64,000 bases of DNA from positions 3,070-67,069 of the forward strand of contig CAYVTP010000001.1 in the NCBI GenBank assembly GCA_964454615.1. The letters run 5' to 3'. The stretch comes from an uncultured Acidimicrobiaceae bacterium (lineage in GTDB: Bacteria; Actinomycetota; Acidimicrobiia; Spongiisociales; ZC4RG35). The translations under genes and the position numbers were made by a program. The notes beneath the pieces were generated by a model. That model had not been told where the DNA came from, searched no databases, and worked only from the letters and a program-made list of their open reading frames with translations. Below are positions 2,227 through 61,309 of this stretch, in pieces. Position 1 is the stretch's first letter, and each line of letters begins with the position of its first letter.

Positions 2227-3549
2227 TCAGAGCTGGCCGGAGTCGGCCTGGTTCATCGTCTGCTCCATGTATCCGGGACGCTGATACCGGTCGAGGAGGA
2301 AGTCGGGCCCGTACCAGGGGACCTCGCCACCTGTGATGTGGGCCGCGGCCAGGTCCCCGGCGCCCGCAGCCACCATCACCCCGAACCCCGACATGCCGGT
2401 CACCAGGTGCAGCCCCTCGGGCCCCGCCGGGCCGATCAGCGGCCGGTTCTCCGGGGTCTTGGTGTAATACCCGCCGTCGACTGTGGCCTCCGGCATGCGG
2501 TCGTGGTAGACCGACAGTCCGGGGACCATGGTGGTCAGGCCCCGCATCACGACCTCCGGATACAGGGCGTCATCGGGGATGGGCCAGACCGGCTCGACCA
2601 CCTGGCCGTGGTACTCCCACAGGGCGAGGAAGTAGGGGGACTTCCCGTGTCCTTCCGGCCTCCCGTGACAGAAGACCGGCATCTCGCCGAGGAGGTCGTG
2701 GCGTCCGAGTGCCTCCAACCCCTGGCGTTCCTCGGGTGACCAGTCGATCCTCTGGGTGTCGGACCAGATGATCATGGGAGCCTCCCTGGGGATCACCGCC
2801 AGGTGGTCCCGGAAGGCCACCTTCAGGTGCAGCTCGGAGAACAGGGGCAGATCCAACCCAGCCATGGCCGCCACCGGTTTGCTCAGCGGGCCGGCGGCCA
2901 CCACCACCTCCCCGGCCTCGATCTCCTCCCCGTTTCGCAGGCGCACCCCGGTCACCCCTTCGTCGCCTGCCGAGATTCCCGTCACCTCCGCCGGGATCAG
3001 CTCGGCCCCCACCGCCTTCGCCTGCTCCAGCATCCATGAGCCCAGCTGTTGGGCGCTGAACCAACCGGCCCTCCTCACATGGGCCGCCCCCACTGCCGAC
3101 GAGGTGATGTAGGGGAAGTGCTCGGCGAGCTCGGCTGGCGACAGGAGGTCGATGCCGTCGGAGGCCATGCCGTAGGGGACCGGCCCGGGGTGGGATCGGG
3201 CCTCCCCGGCGCCGTAGGAGGAAATGACCTGGGCTTGCGCCGTCATCGCATCCATGCGACCCCGGCTGGCGGTGACGAACAGATACCCGCGGTTGCTCAA
3301 GCCGAAGAAGTTGCCCGACTCCCCGGCGAGCGCCTCGAGCAGGTCGATCGAGCGGTTCATCAGCCCCACCATCGGAGAATTCGGCCACCAGTTCCGGTAG
3401 CACTCCGTCGACTTGTCCGAGGTGAGGGTCAATGGCGGCCTTGGATCGACGATGGCGATCCGGGACATGCCCCGCCGGGCTAGGTGGAAAGCGGTCGAGA
3501 CACCGGCGATGCCAGCCCCGATGACCACCGCGTCGGCGCGGCGCGTCAA
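2227..3549 (-). CDS. FAD-dependent oxidoreductase (DAO family)
   Basis: N-terminal Rossmann dinucleotide motif VVIGAGIAGVSTAFHLARRG; 440 aa. Confidence 0.8.
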   Translation of the reverse strand: MTRRADAVVIGAGIAGVSTAFHLARRGMSRIAIVDPRPPLTLTSDKSTECYRNWWPNSPMVGLMNRSIDLLEALAGESGNFFGLSNRGYLFVTASRGRMDAMTAQAQVISSYGAGEARSHPGPVPYGMASDGIDLLSPAELAEHFPYITSSAVGAAHVRRAGWFSAQQLGSWMLEQAKAVGAELIPAEVTGISAGDEGVTGVRLRNGEEIEAGEVVVAAGPLSKPVAAMAGLDLPLFSELHLKVAFRDHLAVIPREAPMIIWSDTQRIDWSPEERQGLEALGRHDLLGEMPVFCHGRPEGHGKSPYFLALWEYHGQVVEPVWPIPDDALYPEVVMRGLTTMVPGLSVYHDRMPEATVDGGYYTKTPENRPLIGPAGPEGLHLVTGMSGFGVMVAAGAGDLAAAHITGGEVPWYGPDFLLDRYQRPGYMEQTMNQADSGQL

Positions 3550-3552
3550 GGG

Positions 3553-5508
3553 TCAGGCCCCCAGGTGTTCCCGGATCCGGCTGGCGATCGCCTCCGGCGT
3601 GAAGCCGAGCTTCTCGGCGATCACGTGGTCCGGAGCCGACGCCCCGTAGTGGTCGATCCCGATCTTCAGGCCTTTTCCCACTATCCGCTCCCAGCCGAAA
3701 GTGGCGGCGGCTTCGATCGACACCAAAGGCGCCTCCCCGAGCACCTCTCTTCGATAGTCCTCGGGCTGTTCGAAGAACAGCTCCCAACAGGGAAGGGAGA
3801 CCACCCGCGCCTCGATGCCCGACTCGAAGAGGAGGTCCGCCGCGTCGAGAGCCAGCGCCACTTCCGAGCCGGTGGCGACCAGGGTGACATCCTGCCCATC
3901 CCTGACCACATAGCCGCCGCGAGCGACACCGCCGTCCACGGCCTCGAGGGTGCGCACCTTCTGGCGAGTCAGTACCAGGCCAACCGGTCCTTCGGTCCGA
4001 TTGAGGGCCACCTCCCATGCCTGCACCACTTCGTTGGCGTCGGCCGGTCGAATCGTCCACATCCCCGGCATCGCCCTCAACGACGCCAGGTGCTCGATCG
4101 GTTGGTGGGTGGGACCGTCCTCACCGAGAAACACCGAGTCGTGGGTCCACACCCATATCGAGGGCGCCTCCATGAGGGCGGCCAGCCGAACCGCCGGTCG
4201 CATGTAATCGCTGAAGAGGAAGAAGGTGGCCCCGTAAGGGCGCAACCCTCCGTGGATCGCCATGCCGTTGACCACCGTCCCCATCGCATGCTCACGGACG
4301 CCGAAGGGGATGTCGCGGGCCGCCCTGTCCTCCTTCGAGAACAGACGCCCGTCTTCTATGACCGTGGAGGTCGATCCGGCCAGGTCCGCCGCACCGCCGA
4401 TCAGCCCTGGCACCTTCTCGGCGAGCTCGGCGAAGAGCTTGCCCCCCGACGAGCGTGTGGCGATGTCCTCTCCCACTTCGAACCCGGGGCCCGACAGGCT
4501 GACCGGCTCGGGGTTGTGGAGGCGGTCCCACAGCTGGCGGACGTCGCCGTCGGCGGCGTCGAGTCGGCGACGCCACTCCATGTTGGCCGACCGGCCACGC
4601 TCCATTGCCTCGTCGAAGAACTCGCGCACCCCCTCGGGGACGTAGAACTCCTCATCGACGGGAAAGCCCATCCCTTCCTTGACCAGGGCTACCTCCTCCT
4701 CACCCAATGGCTTGCCATGGGCATCGGCGGTGTCCTGGAGGTTGGGGGAGCCGTGGGCGATGTGAGTCCGACAGATGATGAGTGTCGGCTGGTCTTCCTG
4801 GGCCAGAGCCTCTTCGATGGCCCGGTCGATCTCCTCTCTGTCGTGGCCGTCGACCTCGGAGGTGTGCCAGCCCATGGCGCCGAACCGTCGGGAAACATCC
4901 TCCGAGAAGGTGATGTCGGTGGAACCGTCGATGGTTATCCGGTTGGAGTCGTAGAGGTAGATCAGCCGTCCCAGGCCGAAATGGCCGGCCAGTGATGCGG
5001 CCTCGGAGCTGACGCCCTCCATCAGGTCCCCGTCCGAGACGAAGGCGTATGTCCGATGGTCGACCAACTCCTGGCCGAGGCGCGCCCTCAGGTGGGCTTC
5101 GGCGAGGGCCATCCCCACCGCCGTGCCGAACCCCTGGCCGAGGGGGCCGGTCGTCATCTCCACTCCGAGATCCTGGTGGATCTCCGGGTGGCCGTCGGTG
5201 TGGGACTCCCACTGCCGGAAGTTGCGTATGTCCTCGAGGGTGGTGCCGAAACCAGCGAGGTGGAGCAACGAGTAGAGGAGCATCGAGCCGTGGCCGTTGG
5301 ATAGGACGAACCGGTCGCGGTCCGGCCAGGTCGGATCCGTCGGGTCGACCTTCAAGTGACGTGTCCACAGGGTCACCGCAATATCGGCCATTCCCATGGG
5401 CATGCCAGGGTGTCCGGCGTTGGCCCTCTGGACCGCGTCCATGGACAGGCCTTTGATGGTGTTGACGGCTAGTTGCTCCAGGGCGGCGCGTTCTGTCCTG
5501 GCTGTCAT
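3553..5508 (-). CDS. tkt: transketolase
   Basis: Full-length similarity to Tkt (LEQLAVNTIKGLSMDAVQRANAGHPGMPMGMADIA..., TPP-binding and pyrimidine-binding regions). Start chosen at MTARTER (cat at 5506-5508); the upstream 5509..5730 extension is Pro/Arg-rich and unlikely to be coding. Confidence 0.9.
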   Translation of the reverse strand: MTARTERAALEQLAVNTIKGLSMDAVQRANAGHPGMPMGMADIAVTLWTRHLKVDPTDPTWPDRDRFVLSNGHGSMLLYSLLHLAGFGTTLEDIRNFRQWESHTDGHPEIHQDLGVEMTTGPLGQGFGTAVGMALAEAHLRARLGQELVDHRTYAFVSDGDLMEGVSSEAASLAGHFGLGRLIYLYDSNRITIDGSTDITFSEDVSRRFGAMGWHTSEVDGHDREEIDRAIEEALAQEDQPTLIICRTHIAHGSPNLQDTADAHGKPLGEEEVALVKEGMGFPVDEEFYVPEGVREFFDEAMERGRSANMEWRRRLDAADGDVRQLWDRLHNPEPVSLSGPGFEVGEDIATRSSGGKLFAELAEKVPGLIGGAADLAGSTSTVIEDGRLFSKEDRAARDIPFGVREHAMGTVVNGMAIHGGLRPYGATFFLFSDYMRPAVRLAALMEAPSIWVWTHDSVFLGEDGPTHQPIEHLASLRAMPGMWTIRPADANEVVQAWEVALNRTEGPVGLVLTRQKVRTLEAVDGGVARGGYVVRDGQDVTLVATGSEVALALDAADLLFESGIEARVVSLPCWELFFEQPEDYRREVLGEAPLVSIEAAATFGWERIVGKGLKIGIDHYGASAPDHVIAEKLGFTPEAIASRIREHLGA

Positions 5509-53958: not shown

Positions 53959-54190
53959 GAAGAAAGGCGACTTACCGGCGCCGCCCTTCTCCGCTTCTCT
54001 CAGTTGTCTCCCGGGCCCTTTCGGCCCGAACCGCTAACTCCGGCTCAAGTGCGAGTGCTGAAAACGCCACTCTCATTCCGAGAAAACGACACTCTCATTC
54101 CATTGACAACGCCCAGGATCCGAGTGTGTAGACGCTCATCAGCTGTGAAGTGACAGGTAAATGCGACGGGAAGTGACACTGTCGCACTTG
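53959..54190. repeat. structured intergenic element R1
   Basis: GC-rich block with GGGCC-cuuuc-GGCCC hairpin. Tandem 22-bp units at 54068..54112 (CACTCTCATTCC core). CTCATCAGCTG at 54135..54145. Terminal hairpin TGCGAC-gggaaGTGACActg-GTCGCA. Confidence 0.8.
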
Positions 54191-54699: not shown

Positions 54700-54910
54700 T
54701 TCGGCCGGCTCCCTCCGCCTTCTCCGGGTGTTCTCCCGGGCTTGCTCGGCCCGAGTCTTGAGTCCTACTCAGAATGCGACCGCTGTCAGTTCCACTCGCA
54801 TTTCGTGTCAGAACCACTCGCATTCGGTGTCAAGACCCGTCGCACTGCCTTTCAGTTCTCATCAGCTGTGAACTGACAGGGAAACAAGAGCGAAATTGAC
54901 ACGCTCTCAA
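54700..54910. repeat. structured intergenic element R2
   Basis: GC-rich hairpins. Tandem 22-bp units at 54792..54835 (CCACTCGCATT core). CTCATCAGCTG at 54858..54868. Hairpin AGAGCG-aaaTTGACA-CGCTCT. Confidence 0.8.
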
Positions 54911-55956: not shown

Positions 55957-56119
55957 GAAGAGAGGCGACCTACCCCGGCCGCCTCTCCGCTCCTTTTGGT
56001 TTGTTTATTGAGCGCCGCTCAAAATGAGAGTCCTGTCAAACCCACTCTCATTCCTTGGCAAACCCACTCTCATTCCGTGGCAAAACCCAGGATGAGAGTA
56101 TGTCAATACTCATCAGCTG
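55957..56119. repeat. structured intergenic element R3 (overlaps the last codons and stop of nrdJ)
   Basis: 5' GC-rich block GAAGAGAGGCGACCTACCCCGGCCGCC nearly identical to R1. Tandem 22-bp units at 56041..56085. CTCATCAGCTG at 56109..56119. Hairpin GAGTA-tgtcaa-TACTC. Confidence 0.8.
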
Positions 56120-59100
56120 CACCCGGTCGTGTCTCCGCAGGTGAGGCAGACGTAGCAGTTTCCGTTGCGGATGGTCATGTGGCCGCAGTTTGAGCATGCG
56201 GGCGCATCACCCATGTTCTCTCTCAGGGCCAGATCAGCCGCATTGGTCTTGGTGACCGTCATCGAGGCGGTGGCAACAGTCGCGGAGTAGGTGAGAGACG
56301 AGCTCGCTTCGCTCGCACCCCCCTCGCCCGGACTCCGTCCGTGCGGTCCCCCCACGAGTGGGGGGACACTGCCCGCTTCACTCGCACCCCCCTCGCCCGG
56401 ACTGCGTCCAGAAGGAACACCAACCGACTCGACCCCGCCGTTGGGGGAGTCGACGAAATCGGCCGCACTCTGCAGGGCGTCGATGTCGATCTCGGCGACA
56501 GCCTCCTCGAGGGTGGCTTGCACCCCGGCCTCCACAGCCAGACCCTTGGGCGGCTCGGGGAGCTCCCGGTCGGGTGGCACCTGGGCTAGCTCATCACGCT
56601 CCAGGTACTCCACACCCAGGGCCCGGAACACGTAGTCGATGATCGAGTTGGCCATCTTGATGTTGGGGTGGCCTTCGACCATGCCCCTCGGCTCGAAGGT
56701 CTGGAAGGTGAAGGTGTCGACGAACTCGTCGAGCGGCACCCCGTACTGGAGACCCTTCGACACCGCGATGGCGAAACAGGAGAGAATCCCCTTCAGGGTC
56801 GCACCCTCCTTGGCGAGGTCGATGAAGATCTCGCCAAGAGTCCCGTCGTCGTACTCGCCCGTGCGGAGGTATACCTTGTGGCCACCTACACGTGCCTCCT
56901 GGTTGAAGCCGTGTCGCTTGGCGGGGAGCAGGAACCTCGGGGGCTGCAGACCCTGTGCGTATGCCTGGGTCGGGGAGAGCCCCTTGGGCAGGTTGCCCCA
57001 GTGGATCGCCTTCTCGGCCTCGACCGCGGTGGTCACCGCAGCGTCCTCCTCCTCACTGTCCTCGCCCTCGTCGGCAGTGGAGTTGAGCGGCTGAGCCGCC
57101 TTCGACCCGTCCCGGTAGATGGCCATCGCCTTCAACCCCAGCTCCCATGAGGTGTGATACGCCTCTGCAATCTCCTCGACGGTGATCTCGTTGGGCATGT
57201 TGATCGTCTTCGATATCGCACCCGAGATGAACGGTTGTGCCGCAGCCATCATCTGGATGTGGCCGTTGTGGTGGATGAACCGCTTCCCGTACTTGCCGTT
57301 CTTGTTGGCGGTGTCGAACACGGGCAGGTGCTCGTCCTTGATGTGTGGTGCGCCTTCGATGGTCTGGCGGCCACAGATGTGGTCGTTGGCCTCGTTGATC
57401 TGAGCCGAGGTGAACCCCAACTCCTTGAGGAGGTTGAAGTCCCATGCCGTGTATGCGTCGGGTGTCAGACCGATCCTCTGCAGGGTGTCCTCGCCGAAGG
57501 TGAACACGTTGAAGGCGTGCTTCAGTTCGAACACCGATGGCAGGACCTTCTCCAGCTTCTCCAGGTCGGACTCGTCGAAGCCCTTCGCCAGCAACGACTC
57601 CCGGTTGATGTGGGGTGCCCCGTCGACCGAGCTGGTTCCGACTATGTACCGGACCACTTCCATGATCTGGTCGTTGGAATATCCAAGGTTTCGCAGCGCC
57701 GGGGTGACTGACTGGTTGACGATCTTGAAGTAGCCGCCACCGGCCAGCTTCTTGAATTTGACCAGGGCGAAGTCGGGCTCCACCCCGGTGGTGTCGCAGT
57801 CCATCAGGAGCCCGATGGTGTTGTGCGACACGAACCCGTTGGCCACGTAGGTCACGTTGTCCGGCACCGACAGGTCAAAGGTCAGTTCCTCTTCACCCAG
57901 CTCGGCCGTGGTGACCCGGTCATAGAAGAAGCCGAGCAGGTGCCCGAGTTCGGTGTCCCCGGTCCGGTCCAACAACTCCTGAGCCGACCGACGGGAGACC
58001 ATGCCTGTGCGGCTCAATGCCATCAGCATCGTCTTTCTGAGGGCATCGTTCTCGGGGGCCAGACGGTCGACCAAATGCCTGGTCACCGGCACCCAGTCCA
58101 TCTTCGACGCCTGACGGGTGGTGATGGCCTGGACCGCTGCGTTCTTGCGGTCGCTCATGAAGCCGACCGAGTCGGTCCACAGCTGCCCGTATGACAGGTT
58201 GAGCACACGGAGTACTGCCAGCGGCGACCCGCCCCAACCAGTTGTGTCGAGCTTTCTGGTCGTGGGGATACCCATCGCAAGCAGGAGCGTCTGCACGTCG
58301 TGGGAGAACTCGATCGAGGTCGTTGACCATGTCGGGTAACCACCGTGATGGACAGAGCCGTCCGCTTCGAACAGTCCCCGAAGGAACGCCGAGTAGACCT
58401 CGGGATCGTTGCTGTGGAGCACCGCATCGGGAATGTGGGGGTGCCATCCCTTGCCGGTGTGTCCTTCTCGTGGAGCGACCTTGGCGAACCCGGAAGCTTC
58501 CCACCACAGGGTGAGGGGGACCGAGTGGAACGCCACTTCGTTGTATCCCGTCTGCTCGGTGACGTGGGCTTCCAGGCCGAACAGTTCTTTACCCAGGAAC
58601 GACAGCCGCTCGACGACGTCGAGGTCTTCGGCTGCGACGGCCATCCGGATGCCCTTGGCATGCAGAGAGCCATCGCCCATGAAGTAGCCGACGAACTCGG
58701 CCAACTCGGGGGTAACAGTCTTCGGGACTCGCGTCGAGAAGTCGCCGGTCCAGTGCATCTCACCAAGTGGCGGGAGTTGCACCACCTGTGGCTCGCCAAT
58801 CAACTGGTTCAGCTGGAGTGGCACGAGATCGTCGGCCGTGATCTGGGCAAAGCGCTTCCACTCCCAGGTGCCATCGCGCTGGACCACCCTGATCCGGTGA
58901 GTAGGGGTCCCCTTGATCCGGTAGCCACGGCTGGTCTCAACCGTGACCACTGGTTCGACACCATTGATGTAGAACTGCGAGGCGTTCCGAGGTCCTTCAT
59001 CGGTGGCGACGTCAATACCGAGGTCCTGCCATTCTTCGCCGTTGGCATCACCCAGCGAATTGAGCCGGACAAGACCACGCTCGGTCGGGATCAGAGAACC

Positions 59101-60900
59101 TCCAGCGAGGCACCCGGTGGGAGCGATAACGCTCTCCTGACCGTTCCGGTAGCCGTACTTCTCGCCGAGTTCCAACGCGAGGTCCCACGACTGTCTTGCT
59201 GCGTCGAGCATGTCAGACGGGCAGTAGTCAGGGTCCAACCCCACCACTGTGTGGCTAACGCCCTCGTAGGTTTCGTCGTTGTATGCAGCCCGACGGTGGT
59301 TACGCATAACGCGGAGCATCGCGTCTCGGTTCTCCTCATACTTCGGGAAAGGGCCGACCACGCTTGCGATCTCGGCCGACGTGGCGTACCCAAACCCAGT
59401 CAGGACGGCGGAGAGTGCACCGGCGATCGTCCTTCCCTCGTTGGAGTCGTAGGCGATGCCCTGACGCATAAGCAGAGATCCCAGGTTGGCGTAGCCGAGG
59501 CCGAGTGGTCGATAGTCGTATGACCCTTGTGCGATCTCCGCCGACGGGAAATGAGCCATGGCGACCGAGATCTCTAGAACGATGGTCCACAGTCTTACTG
59601 CATGCTTGTAGGCCTCGATGTCGAAGACACCCGATGTGTCATCGTAGAAACGGACCAGATTGATCGATGCCAGGTTGCAGGCAGTGTCGTTGAGGTAGAC
59701 GAATTCTGAACACGGGTTGGACGCGTAGATCTTTCCTCCAGCCGGGCTCGTGTGCCACTCATTGATGGTGGTGTCGAACTGGATGCCAGGATCGGCGCAG
59801 GCCCATGCGGCATCGGCGATCTTCTGCCACAAGTCACGTGCCTTGATGGTCTTTCGGACTGCACCGTCGGTTCGGTTGGTCAATGCCCAGTCGCCGTCGT
59901 CGAGGACGGCCTGAACAAACTCGTTGGTGACCCTCACCGAGTTGTTCGAGTTCTGACCCGAGACCGTGGCGTAGGCCTCGCCGTTGAAGTCTGCCGGGTA
60001 CCCACCATGCTGAATGAGGATTCGGGCCTTCTCCTCCTCGACCTTCTTCCACTCGATGAACTTCTCGATGTCCGGGTGATCGACGTCGAGGATGACCATC
60101 TTGGCGGCACGGCGTGTGGTGCCACCCGACTTGATCGCACCCGCAGCACGGTCCCCGATCTTGAGGAAAGACATGACTCCGGAGGACTTGCCACCACCAG
60201 AGAGACGCTCGTTCTCGCCCCGGATCTCGGAGAAGTTGGAGCCGGCACCGGAGCCGAACTTGAAGATCCGCGCCTCACGCAGCCAAAGGTCCATGATCCC
60301 ACCGGGGTTCACCAGATCGTCCTTGGCCGAGAGTATGAAACAGGCATGCGGGGCAGGGCGGCTGTAGGAGTCGGGTGAGGAGGTCAGTTCCTCGGTCTCG
60401 CTGTCCACGTACCAGAAGCCCTGGGCGGGCCCTTCGAGTCCGTAGGCGAAGTTGAGACCGGTGTTGAACCACTGAGGGGAGTTGGGCGACGCCATCTGGT
60501 TGGCGAGCATGAACTTGAGCTCGTCCTCGAACGCCTGGGCGTCCTCGGTCGAGGCGAAGTAGCCCTCGCGCTCGCCCCAGTGGCGCCAGGTCCCGGCGAG
60601 ACGATCGAACACCTGCTTGGCGGACTGCTCGGGGCCGAGCACCGGGTTGCCTTTGGCGTCGATTAGCGGGCTGCCTTCGGCGTCGACCTGGGGGACACCG
60701 GCCTTGCGGAAGTACTTGGAGACCATGATGTCGGAGGCCACCTGGCTCCACCCGGCGGGGATCTCGGCCCCGGTCATCTCGAACACCACCGAGCCGTCGG
60801 GATTGGAGATCTTCGAGTCGCGGTAGGACCACTCGAAACTGTCGTAGGGGTCGGCCCCTGCCTGGGTGAAGCGGCGGTTGATCCGCAGGCCTTCGCTCAT
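56113..60900 (-). CDS. nrdJ: adenosylcobalamin-dependent (class II) ribonucleotide reductase NrdJ, intein-containing, with C-terminal Zn-ribbon
   Basis: Class II RNR catalytic core (active-site Cys regions NPCSEF..., thiyl loop). C-terminal CSNCGH...CYVCLTCG zinc finger. GGAGGAGG SD. The 1595 aa include a 431-aa intein. Confidence 0.9.
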   Translation of the reverse strand: MSEGLRINRRFTQAGADPYDSFEWSYRDSKISNPDGSVVFEMTGAEIPAGWSQVASDIMVSKYFRKAGVPQVDAEGSPLIDAKGNPVLGPEQSAKQVFDRLAGTWRHWGEREGYFASTEDAQAFEDELKFMLANQMASPNSPQWFNTGLNFAYGLEGPAQGFWYVDSETEELTSSPDSYSRPAPHACFILSAKDDLVNPGGIMDLWLREARIFKFGSGAGSNFSEIRGENERLSGGGKSSGVMSFLKIGDRAAGAIKSGGTTRRAAKMVILDVDHPDIEKFIEWKKVEEEKARILIQHGGYPADFNGEAYATVSGQNSNNSVRVTNEFVQAVLDDGDWALTNRTDGAVRKTIKARDLWQKIADAAWACADPGIQFDTTINEWHTSPAGGKIYASNPCSEFVYLNDTACNLASINLVRFYDDTSGVFDIEAYKHAVRLWTIVLEISVAMAHFPSAEIAQGSYDYRPLGLGYANLGSLLMRQGIAYDSNEGRTIAGALSAVLTGFGYATSAEIASVVGPFPKYEENRDAMLRVMRNHRRAAYNDETYEGVSHTVVGLDPDYCPSDMLDAARQSWDLALELGEKYGYRNGQESVIAPTGCLAGGSLIPTERGLVRLNSLGDANGEEWQDLGIDVATDEGPRNASQFYINGVEPVVTVETSRGYRIKGTPTHRIRVVQRDGTWEWKRFAQITADDLVPLQLNQLIGEPQVVQLPPLGEMHWTGDFSTRVPKTVTPELAEFVGYFMGDGSLHAKGIRMAVAAEDLDVVERLSFLGKELFGLEAHVTEQTGYNEVAFHSVPLTLWWEASGFAKVAPREGHTGKGWHPHIPDAVLHSNDPEVYSAFLRGLFEADGSVHHGGYPTWSTTSIEFSHDVQTLLLAMGIPTTRKLDTTGWGGSPLAVLRVLNLSYGQLWTDSVGFMSDRKNAAVQAITTRQASKMDWVPVTRHLVDRLAPENDALRKTMLMALSRTGMVSRRSAQELLDRTGDTELGHLLGFFYDRVTTAELGEEELTFDLSVPDNVTYVANGFVSHNTIGLLMDCDTTGVEPDFALVKFKKLAGGGYFKIVNQSVTPALRNLGYSNDQIMEVVRYIVGTSSVDGAPHINRESLLAKGFDESDLEKLEKVLPSVFELKHAFNVFTFGEDTLQRIGLTPDAYTAWDFNLLKELGFTSAQINEANDHICGRQTIEGAPHIKDEHLPVFDTANKNGKYGKRFIHHNGHIQMMAAAQPFISGAISKTINMPNEITVEEIAEAYHTSWELGLKAMAIYRDGSKAAQPLNSTADEGEDSEEEDAAVTTAVEAEKAIHWGNLPKGLSPTQAYAQGLQPPRFLLPAKRHGFNQEARVGGHKVYLRTGEYDDGTLGEIFIDLAKEGATLKGILSCFAIAVSKGLQYGVPLDEFVDTFTFQTFEPRGMVEGHPNIKMANSIIDYVFRALGVEYLERDELAQVPPDRELPEPPKGLAVEAGVQATLEEAVAEIDIDALQSAADFVDSPNGGVESVGVPSGRSPGEGGASEAGSVPPLVGGPHGRSPGEGGASEASSSLTYSATVATASMTVTKTNAADLALRENMGDAPACSNCGHMTIRNGNCYVCLTCGDTTGCS
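56290..56410. repeat. near-perfect ~36-bp direct repeat inside the nrdJ C-terminal linker
   Basis: GCTTCGCTCGCACCCCCCTCGCCCGGACTCCGTCC and GCTTCACTCGCACCCCCCTCGCCCGGACTGCGTCC encode the duplicated peptide GRSPGEGGASEA. Confidence 0.75.
57820..59112 (-). mobile_element. intein with LAGLIDADG homing-endonuclease domain inserted in NrdJ (residues 597-1027)
   Basis: Begins Cys (APTG|CLAGGSLIPT) and ends ...GFVSHN followed by +1 Thr (TIGLLMD). Two LAGLIDADG motifs (FVGYFMGDGSLH, LRGLFEADGSVH). The flanking extein residues rejoin into a contiguous RNR sequence. Confidence 0.8.
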
Positions 60901-60983
60901 CTGTAGTGCCTCCTCCGCACTCGACCCCGGGGAGATTGATCCGGGGAAAGTCTCGATTTCAAAAGCCGCCTAAACGACTCCAA

Positions 60984-60999
60984 CCACAAGATGTTGTGG
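60984..60999. promoter_or_regulatory. candidate NrdR box 1 upstream of nrdJ
   Basis: CCACAAGATGTTGTGG is a palindrome matching the NrdR consensus acaCwAtATaTwGtgt at ~11/16 positions, ~90 bp upstream of the nrdJ ATG. Confidence 0.5.
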
Positions 61000-61014
61000 T
61001 CTGCGGGGAAGTGT

Positions 61015-61030
61015 CCACTACATCTGGTAT
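61015..61030. promoter_or_regulatory. candidate NrdR box 2 (tandem, 31 bp centre-to-centre from box 1)
   Basis: CCACTACATCTGGTAT is a weaker match. The spacing is typical of tandem NrdR boxes. Confidence 0.35.
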
Positions 61031-61309
61031 GGACTTCAGCAATGTAATTACACGTTTGTCAGGAGTCAAGTACCAGTTGCCGCAGGCCCGAAGACGCACC
61101 CGCGACAGACGTCTGCCGCTCTGTGGGGAAGCGAGCGCTCCTGGCACTCGGGGAAGCGGAGAGGACTCTAACTGCCATGTCTCCCGACCGTACCGGGGCA
61201 CGCCGACAGATTTTCGCGACCGGTCGACTCACCGTCGTAGCGGGCCACCCGGTGCGCCAGCCGAACTGGATCGCCGCGGCCCCCTCCCCCATGAGATACT
61301 CAATCCCCC

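Follow-up and report, generated by a model that had tools for sequence, protein, structure and literature searches.

A predicted class 1 intein with a nested LAGLIDADG homing endonuclease at the APTG|T site of the class II ribonucleotide reductase NrdJ in an uncultured Acidimicrobiaceae bacterium

A 64,000-nucleotide stretch of DNA from an uncultured Acidimicrobiaceae bacterium (GenBank assembly GCA_964454615.1, contig CAYVTP010000001.1, positions 3,070 to 67,069; hereafter called the window) carries on its minus strand nrdJ, the gene of a class II ribonucleotide reductase (RNR), the reading frame of which includes an insert of 431 amino acids (aa). This arrangement raises the question of whether the insert is a complete intein and, if so, whether the homing endonuclease encoded within it still makes it a mobile element. 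A LAGLIDADG intein in NrdJ had been claimed in a preliminary description made from the sequence; its coordinates, length and junction residues proved exact to the base, and both LAGLIDADG motifs were located in the insert (Table 1).

The identity of the host gene, also named correctly in that description, was established by profile searches. The precursor matched the Pfam domains Ribonuc_red_2_N (E = 1.5e-37), Ribonuc_red_lgC (E = 3.5e-123) and TSCPD, and the match to the RNR barrel was divided by the insert, with one part on each side. Among the NCBIfam models of vitamin-B12-dependent RNRs, NF005122 (1202.7 vs. a cut-off of 859) and TIGR02504 (549.7 vs. 399.95) scored above their cut-offs, while NF005736 remained below (1603.6 vs. 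1737) with the intein left in the query. Judged by these domains, the host is a class II adenosylcobalamin-dependent RNR, NrdJ, of the long type (approximately 1160 aa, PRK07562-like) of Acidimicrobiia. The protein ends in a Cys-rich tail (CxxC...CxxC), and the ATG of the gene is preceded by a strong Shine–Dalgarno sequence, GGAGGAGG. A low-complexity linker lies ahead of the Cys-rich tail (~56290–56420, minus strand; precursor aa ~1495–1535), in which a peptide is duplicated, GRSPGEGGASEAGS ... GRSPGEGGASEASS; Tandem Repeats Finder (TRF) called no repeat at the DNA level for this duplication.

The borders of the insert could be defined by comparison with intein-free enzymes. In the alignment with the B12-dependent RNR of PDB entry 7b9q, which consisted of three blocks, G596 of the query paired with G675 and T1028 with T676. 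Since these two partners are adjacent in 7b9q, removal of residues 597–1027 leaves an uninterrupted NrdJ. The spliced junction was likewise gap-free in all of the 80 nearest intein-free orthologues, which were taken from species-representative genomes, all of them metagenome-assembled genomes (MAGs) of Acidimicrobiia, and were 67–87% identical to the query. Thus, the contiguity of the joined exteins with intein-free NrdJ, on which the preliminary description had made its claim depend, was found both in the solved structure and in 80/80 orthologues.

The junction also located the insert within the enzyme. BLASTP alignment of the spliced extein with Escherichia coli NrdA matched VIAPTG|TIG (the vertical bar marks the insertion point) with LMPSE|TSS, by which the insertion point corresponds to E623|T624. 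The equivalent loop of the class Ia enzyme of E. coli contributes Ser622 and Ser625, which form hydrogen bonds with the diphosphate of the substrate, a nucleoside diphosphate (Zimanyi et al., 2016; PMC4728125). According to this alignment, the intein interrupts the loop predicted to bind the diphosphate of the nucleotide substrate. An insert of 431 residues in the substrate-phosphate loop implies that the precursor must be inactive and that RNR activity would depend on splicing. The position adds one more data point to the observation that inteins target catalytic loops of replication-related enzymes. The N-extein residues directly preceding the insert (aa 586–596; 59113–59145, minus strand) show Gly and Glu substitutions found only in this intein-bearing copy. 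In the 80 intein-free orthologues, the same stretch reads almost always RNAQ(A/S)(T/S)V(L/I)APTG, and the related intein-bearing gene L081 (see below) retains the usual RNAQATVLAPTG. The substitutions may be an adaptation of the extein to splicing.

The translated insert starts with CLAGGSLIPTERG, ends with TYVANGFVSHN and is flanked by VIAPTG on the N side and TIGLLMD on the C side. All residues required for class 1 splicing were present, namely C1, T69-P-T-H72, D413, H430-N431 and Thr+1, and each of them, as well as D147 and D251 of the endonuclease, was the dominant residue at its position in a family alignment of 35 sequences. Within the insert, Pfam detected LAGLIDADG_3 (E = 1e-15, 58 bits vs. 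a cut-off of 22.5) and Intein_splicing (E = 1e-10, 41.9 bits vs. 35.8), matches well outside the range of chance. Of the NCBIfam models, intein_Cterm exceeded its cut-off (22.6 vs. 15.6) and intein_Nterm fell slightly below it (22.0 vs. 24.5). The AlphaFold2 model of the intein, computed from an alignment of 43 sequences, reached a mean predicted local distance difference test (pLDDT) score of 92.7 and a predicted template modelling (TM) score (pTM) of 0.93. Foldseek matched this model to inteins of solved structure (7qss, 1dq3, 2cw7, 1vde and 1am2), including TliVMA, PI-PfuI, PI-TkoII and PI-SceI, and its endonuclease part to complexes of I-DmoI with DNA (TMt ~0.72, root-mean-square deviation ~3 Å). 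The DSSP pattern of residues 135–330 was consistent with a DNA-binding saddle built from two alpha-beta-beta-alpha-beta-beta-alpha lobes, and the helical region that follows the endonuclease core (aa 340–392) may be an accessory DNA-binding module. A Hint domain of the bacterial intein-like (BIL) or Hedgehog type was ruled out by the C-terminal His-Asn, the +1 nucleophile, the nested endonuclease and the precise junction that restores the host protein. Considering these results, we concluded that the insert very probably belongs to the canonical class 1 inteins and carries a nested LAGLIDADG homing endonuclease of the double-motif type, and that it looks intact.

From this anatomy, a pathway can be proposed. 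The gene nrdJ would be translated as a 1595-aa precursor inactive as a reductase, from which the Hint domain would excise itself. An N–S acyl shift at Cys1 would be followed by transesterification of the N-extein onto the hydroxyl of Thr+1, then by cyclisation of Asn431 with the help of His430, and finally by an O–N shift finishing the bond. The products would be a contiguous NrdJ of 1164 aa and the free 431-aa intein. From the complete set of splicing residues, we infer that the precursor is spliced in the cell. The free intein might then cut an intein-less nrdJ through its LAGLIDADG domain (D147, D251) at the reconstituted site ATCGCTCCCACCGGG|ACCATCGGGCTCCTG, or, written out more fully, GTTATCGCTCCCACCGGG|ACCATCGGGCTCCTGATGGAC, and repair off the intein-bearing copy would insert the element. 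The preliminary description had called the element possibly still homing-competent, which is plausible; on balance, the endonuclease is somewhat more likely than not to be active today. An active enzyme would count as a new LAGLIDADG meganuclease, and its target would be a motif that is conserved in RNRs of both class I and class II.

The insertion site is shared by a large family. Among bacterial proteins, RNR ranks second in the number of inteins, of which Novikova et al. (2016; PMC4760082) counted 211. The preliminary description had also stated that RNR inteins are known, and comparison of both the intein and its site bore this out by revealing an allelic family at the same point. Altogether 380 homologues of the intein were detected, of which the best 120 all had E<=7e-87. 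Among these best 120, the insertion point was identical (..APTG|C....SHN|TI..) in 70/70 recognisable C-junctions and 51/51 recognisable N-junctions. More than 100 inteins homologous to that of the window are found at precisely this point of bacterial NrdJ genes. The host genes were NrdJ of Actinomycetota (Acidimicrobiia, Gaiellaceae, Pseudonocardiaceae, Kribbellaceae and others), Chloroflexota, Gemmatimonadota and Binatota, and in one case the host was a MAG labelled Nanoarchaeota. Several of the homologues (for example P0002, P0019 and P0067) already bear the NCBI name 'intein-containing adenosylcobalamin-dependent ribonucleoside-diphosphate reductase'. The exact precursor protein was absent from the public gene-position collection. 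Public data already hold many representatives of both the intein family and its insertion site, the sequence itself being new and the allele rare in the host lineage; nothing in the finding should surprise specialists of inteins or RNRs. In one homologue (P0016), the allelic intein at APTG|C is accompanied by another intein at an unrelated site, SGAISK|CVVGETLV, which indicates that multiple intein sites coexist in the NrdJ family.

Gene calls in this family deserve a remark. The nrdJ of L081 (904–5376) is one unbroken frame of approximately 1490 codons. Its public gene call (3274–5395) begins at a Met inside the intein and is named by NCBI 'LAGLIDADG family homing endonuclease, partial', and many of the listed homologues carry the same name or are fragments with the LAGLIDADG domain only. 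Hence, intein-containing nrdJ genes seem often to be mis-called or mis-named. The chief use of the finding lies in annotation: the gene described here should be annotated as one intein-containing nrdJ, rather than as split ORFs (open reading frames) or a "LAGLIDADG endonuclease", with the 1164-aa spliced product as the mature enzyme.

The wide distribution of the family is accompanied by patchiness close to the host. The intein was absent from all of the 80 species representatives nearest to the host (0/80; no tblastn match to the intein). A second sample was picked solely for resemblance to the N-extein, which makes it blind to the presence of the intein; of its 101 informative sequences, 98 continued APTG|T, that is, were intein-free, and three (~3%) APTG|C. 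The nearest intein-bearing gene, L081, ranked only 33rd by extein identity (78%), while the closest host gene (L001, 87%) was intein-free. On a neighbour-joining (NJ) tree of the exteins, this pattern corresponds to either one gain in the common ancestor of the window copy and L081 followed by at least four precise losses, or two gains. The inteins were 45–67% identical to that of the window, whereas the first 250 aa of the C-exteins of the best 120 homologues were only 33–41% identical, apart from P0034 (72%; from the near relative L081) and P0101 (55%). Patchiness among close relatives and intein similarity above host-gene similarity together form the pattern that horizontal spread by homing would be expected to leave. 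Between the window and L081, the intein was slightly more conserved (81.4%) than the exteins (77–79%). The ratio of nonsynonymous to synonymous substitution rates (dN/dS) for the same pair was 0.106 for the intein, 0.117 for its endonuclease part and 0.10–0.17 for the exteins. In a decaying endonuclease, dN/dS drifts towards 1. We favour the reading that the intein has been mobile among NrdJ genes and that its endonuclease has been maintained by selection.

Several points weigh against this reading, above all against a recent transfer, and have to be set beside it. The support for splicing and DNA cleavage is computational. The list of the 80 nearest orthologues might rank split genes lower, an objection partly answered by the sample drawn on the N-extein, and the NJ tree carries no support values. 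Synonymous divergence (dS) from L081 was near saturation (1.1–1.7) and alike in the intein and the exteins, so that a recent transfer is not demonstrated. The GC content and the GC content at third codon positions (GC3) were almost equal in the intein (0.622/0.777) and the exteins (0.62–0.63/0.81–0.84), giving no compositional sign of recent import. No co-conversion tract common to L081 was found in the flanks of ±30 nt, which showed many wobble differences. No near-identical copy was found elsewhere, the closest intein being that of L081 (81%). Regarding a phage-borne copy, tblastn against 50,697 phage genomes yielded only distant inteins (21–28%) in terminase, helicase, polymerase and other genes, and a pattern scan of IMG/VR found no relative, so that nothing in these searches marks the allele as phage-borne.

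That no near-identical or phage-borne copy was found, the synonymous divergence as deep as that of the host gene and the fully ameliorated composition would also suit an intein that splices with a dead or dying endonuclease, an immobile passenger inherited vertically and retained only since the host enzyme is essential and would be ruined by any imprecise loss. Endonuclease decay does occur in the family: D147 is conserved in 30/35 sequences of the alignment (S, A or N in 5/35) and D251 in 32/35 (A in 2/35), and an allele of Haloquadratum walsbyi has lost both acids (GSG and AIG; see below). The window copy, however, retains both catalytic Asp residues together with every near-invariant residue of the family, and a complete two-lobed fold is predicted for it with high confidence. 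The dN/dS of its endonuclease, as low as that of the essential host enzyme, is unexpected for a decaying domain, and gains account more simply for the patchiness among close relatives. We therefore regard a dead or dying endonuclease as less probable than an active one.

The position of the intein suggests yet another role, that of a conditional post-translational switch, in which splicing would answer a redox or metal cue and gate active RNR and thereby the supply of deoxynucleoside triphosphates. The insert lies in a catalytically essential loop, its precursor must be inactive and nrdJ may be the only RNR of the cell; Cys1 is a redox-sensitive nucleophile and another Cys occupies extein position +8 (TIGLLMDC). 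Inteins cluster at functional sites, and some other inteins are known to splice conditionally (PMC4513877, PMC4760082). Nothing in the sequence points specifically to regulation, however; C1 is the sole Cys of the intein, which makes an intra-intein disulphide trap impossible, and since 98 of the 101 relatives selected by the N-extein and all of the 80 nearest orthologues do without the intein, the lineage can dispense with any such role. A switch function, by which the intein would be more than a parasite, thus seems improbable. In a weaker variant of this idea, the element would be an actively homing endonuclease that has jumped from hosts with short-type NrdJ and is now spreading into the long-type NrdJ of Acidimicrobiia. 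That the insert fails to splice, leaving a disrupted, non-functional nrdJ, is hardly credible: nothing specific speaks for it, and it is opposed by the frame open over 1595 codons, the full set of splicing residues, the strong purifying selection on both exteins in comparison with L081 (dN/dS 0.10–0.17), and the promoter-like site, NrdR-box-like operators and Shine–Dalgarno sequence in place.

The preferred reading remains that of an intein that has been mobile among NrdJ genes, with an endonuclease kept by selection.

The surroundings of the gene were also surveyed. A sigma-70-like promoter, TTGACT-17-TACATT (61069–61041, minus strand), was the only such match in 5.4 kb, and downstream of it lie two imperfect palindromes, CCATACCAGATGTAGTGG (61015–61032) and ACCACAACATCTTGTGGT (60983–61000), with centres 32 bp apart. 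These candidate operators resemble tandem NrdR boxes. The gene is apparently monocistronic, its neighbours encoding an APH-family phosphotransferase and an alpha/beta hydrolase. Rfam gave no match at gathering thresholds in the whole window, hence no cobalamin riboswitch at nrdJ. An antisense ORF of 392 aa over the intein and the N-extein (58345–59523, plus strand) had no Pfam match and was discarded as most likely an antisense artefact of high GC content. No second intein of the family was found in the window, as hmmsearch of 420 stop-to-stop ORFs with the hidden Markov model of the family matched nrdJ only. An intergenic module occurs in three copies (~53994–54186, ~54719–54909 and ~56022–56119), each directly 3′ of one of three consecutive minus-strand genes, the third starting at the stop codon of nrdJ. 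In every copy, a 22-nt unit occurs twice in tandem (minus strand, GGAATGAGAGTGGGTTTGCCAA; 2.4 copies of period 22 according to TRF), and there are hairpins, AATGAGAGT...ACTCTCATT, with a run of T after them. The module looks like a shared terminator or an element of the 3′ untranslated region; it had no further copies within the 64 kb and no Rfam match.

Table 1. Features of the intein-containing nrdJ locus (positions in the window; all numbering of aa as indicated)
Feature	Position	Strand	Remarks
nrdJ 5′ control region	60983..61069	minus	promoter-like match and two palindromes
nrdJ precursor ORF including intein, 1595 aa	56113..60900	minus	single uninterrupted frame; Pfam and NCBIfam matches
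N-extein, precursor aa 1–596	59113..60900	minus	contains the NPC thiyl-radical motif IYASNPCSEF
Intein, 431 aa, Cys1 to Asn431	57820..59112	minus	in frame; precursor residues 597–1027
Hint N-terminal half, intein aa 1–105	58798..59112	minus	block A Cys1; block B GTPTH (T69, H72)
LAGLIDADG homing-endonuclease core, intein aa 135–330	58123..58710	minus	two alpha-beta-beta-alpha-beta-beta-alpha halves
LAGLIDADG motif 1 EFVGYFMGDG, intein aa 139–148	58669–58698	minus	catalytic D147
LAGLIDADG motif 2 FLRGLFEADG, intein aa 243–252	58357–58386	minus	catalytic D251
Helical region past the endonuclease core, intein aa 340–392	57937..58095	minus	confident prediction (AlphaFold2)
Hint C-terminal half, intein aa 395–431	57820..57930	minus	block F ELTFDLSVPDNVTYVA (D413); block G NGFVSHN (H430, N431)
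C-extein, 568 aa and stop codon	56113..57819	minus	starts with Thr+1, codon 57817–57819

Comparison with named systems places the element among known inteins. NrdJ-1 and NrdJ-2, the split inteins of ocean metagenomes (Dassa et al., 2009; PMC2677866), share with it the host enzyme class NrdJ, but they occur naturally as split mini-inteins, their endonuclease is encoded by a free-standing gene, and their site lies one residue after the thiyl-radical Cys, not at APTG|T. Among solved structures, the best sequence match (E = 3e-14) was to TliVMA/PhoVMA of the archaeal V-ATPase subunit A (PDB 7qss, 7qsu and 7qst), which have the same domain order, and TliVMA 7qss was also the best structural match (Foldseek E = 7e-26, TM 0.74); nevertheless, they reside in another host protein at another insertion site and are only ~20% identical. 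PI-PfuI (PDB 1dq3), encoded in the ribonucleotide reductase gene of Pyrococcus furiosus, is likewise an RNR-borne bifunctional LAGLIDADG intein of similar fold (E = 3e-18, TMq 0.64), although it is only 16% identical and has an additional 'stirrup' domain.

The closest counterparts are the bacterial NrdJ alleles at APTG|T, which agree with the window intein in host enzyme, insertion point, the succession of Hint, double LAGLIDADG and helical module, and homology over the full length. Their identity to it is 45–67% in general and 81% for L081 (GCA_035292685.1, an Acidimicrobiia MAG). Most of them reside in short-type NrdJ with C-exteins 33–41% identical, whereas the window copy is found in a long-type NrdJ of Acidimicrobiia. 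The same point is occupied by the second intein of the RNR of H. walsbyi DSM 16790 (YP_658568.1), NHNTTTIAPTG|CVEEN...FVTHN|TTSMIG, which is colinear over its full length with the window intein (29% identity, E = 3e-43). In the archaeal intein, GSG and AIG stand in place of GDG and ADG, so that both catalytic acids are gone, while the window copy retains both. The location of the archaeal intein follows from the RNR alignment in the supplement to Soucy et al. (2014; PMC4071816), a survey of the catalogued 'rir1' intein alleles; that paper lists rir1-b, g, k, l and m, of which g, k, l and m are candidates for the letter of APTG|T. The match to H. walsbyi indicates that the allele spans Archaea and Bacteria, and that the site and the intein lineage have already been known for years.

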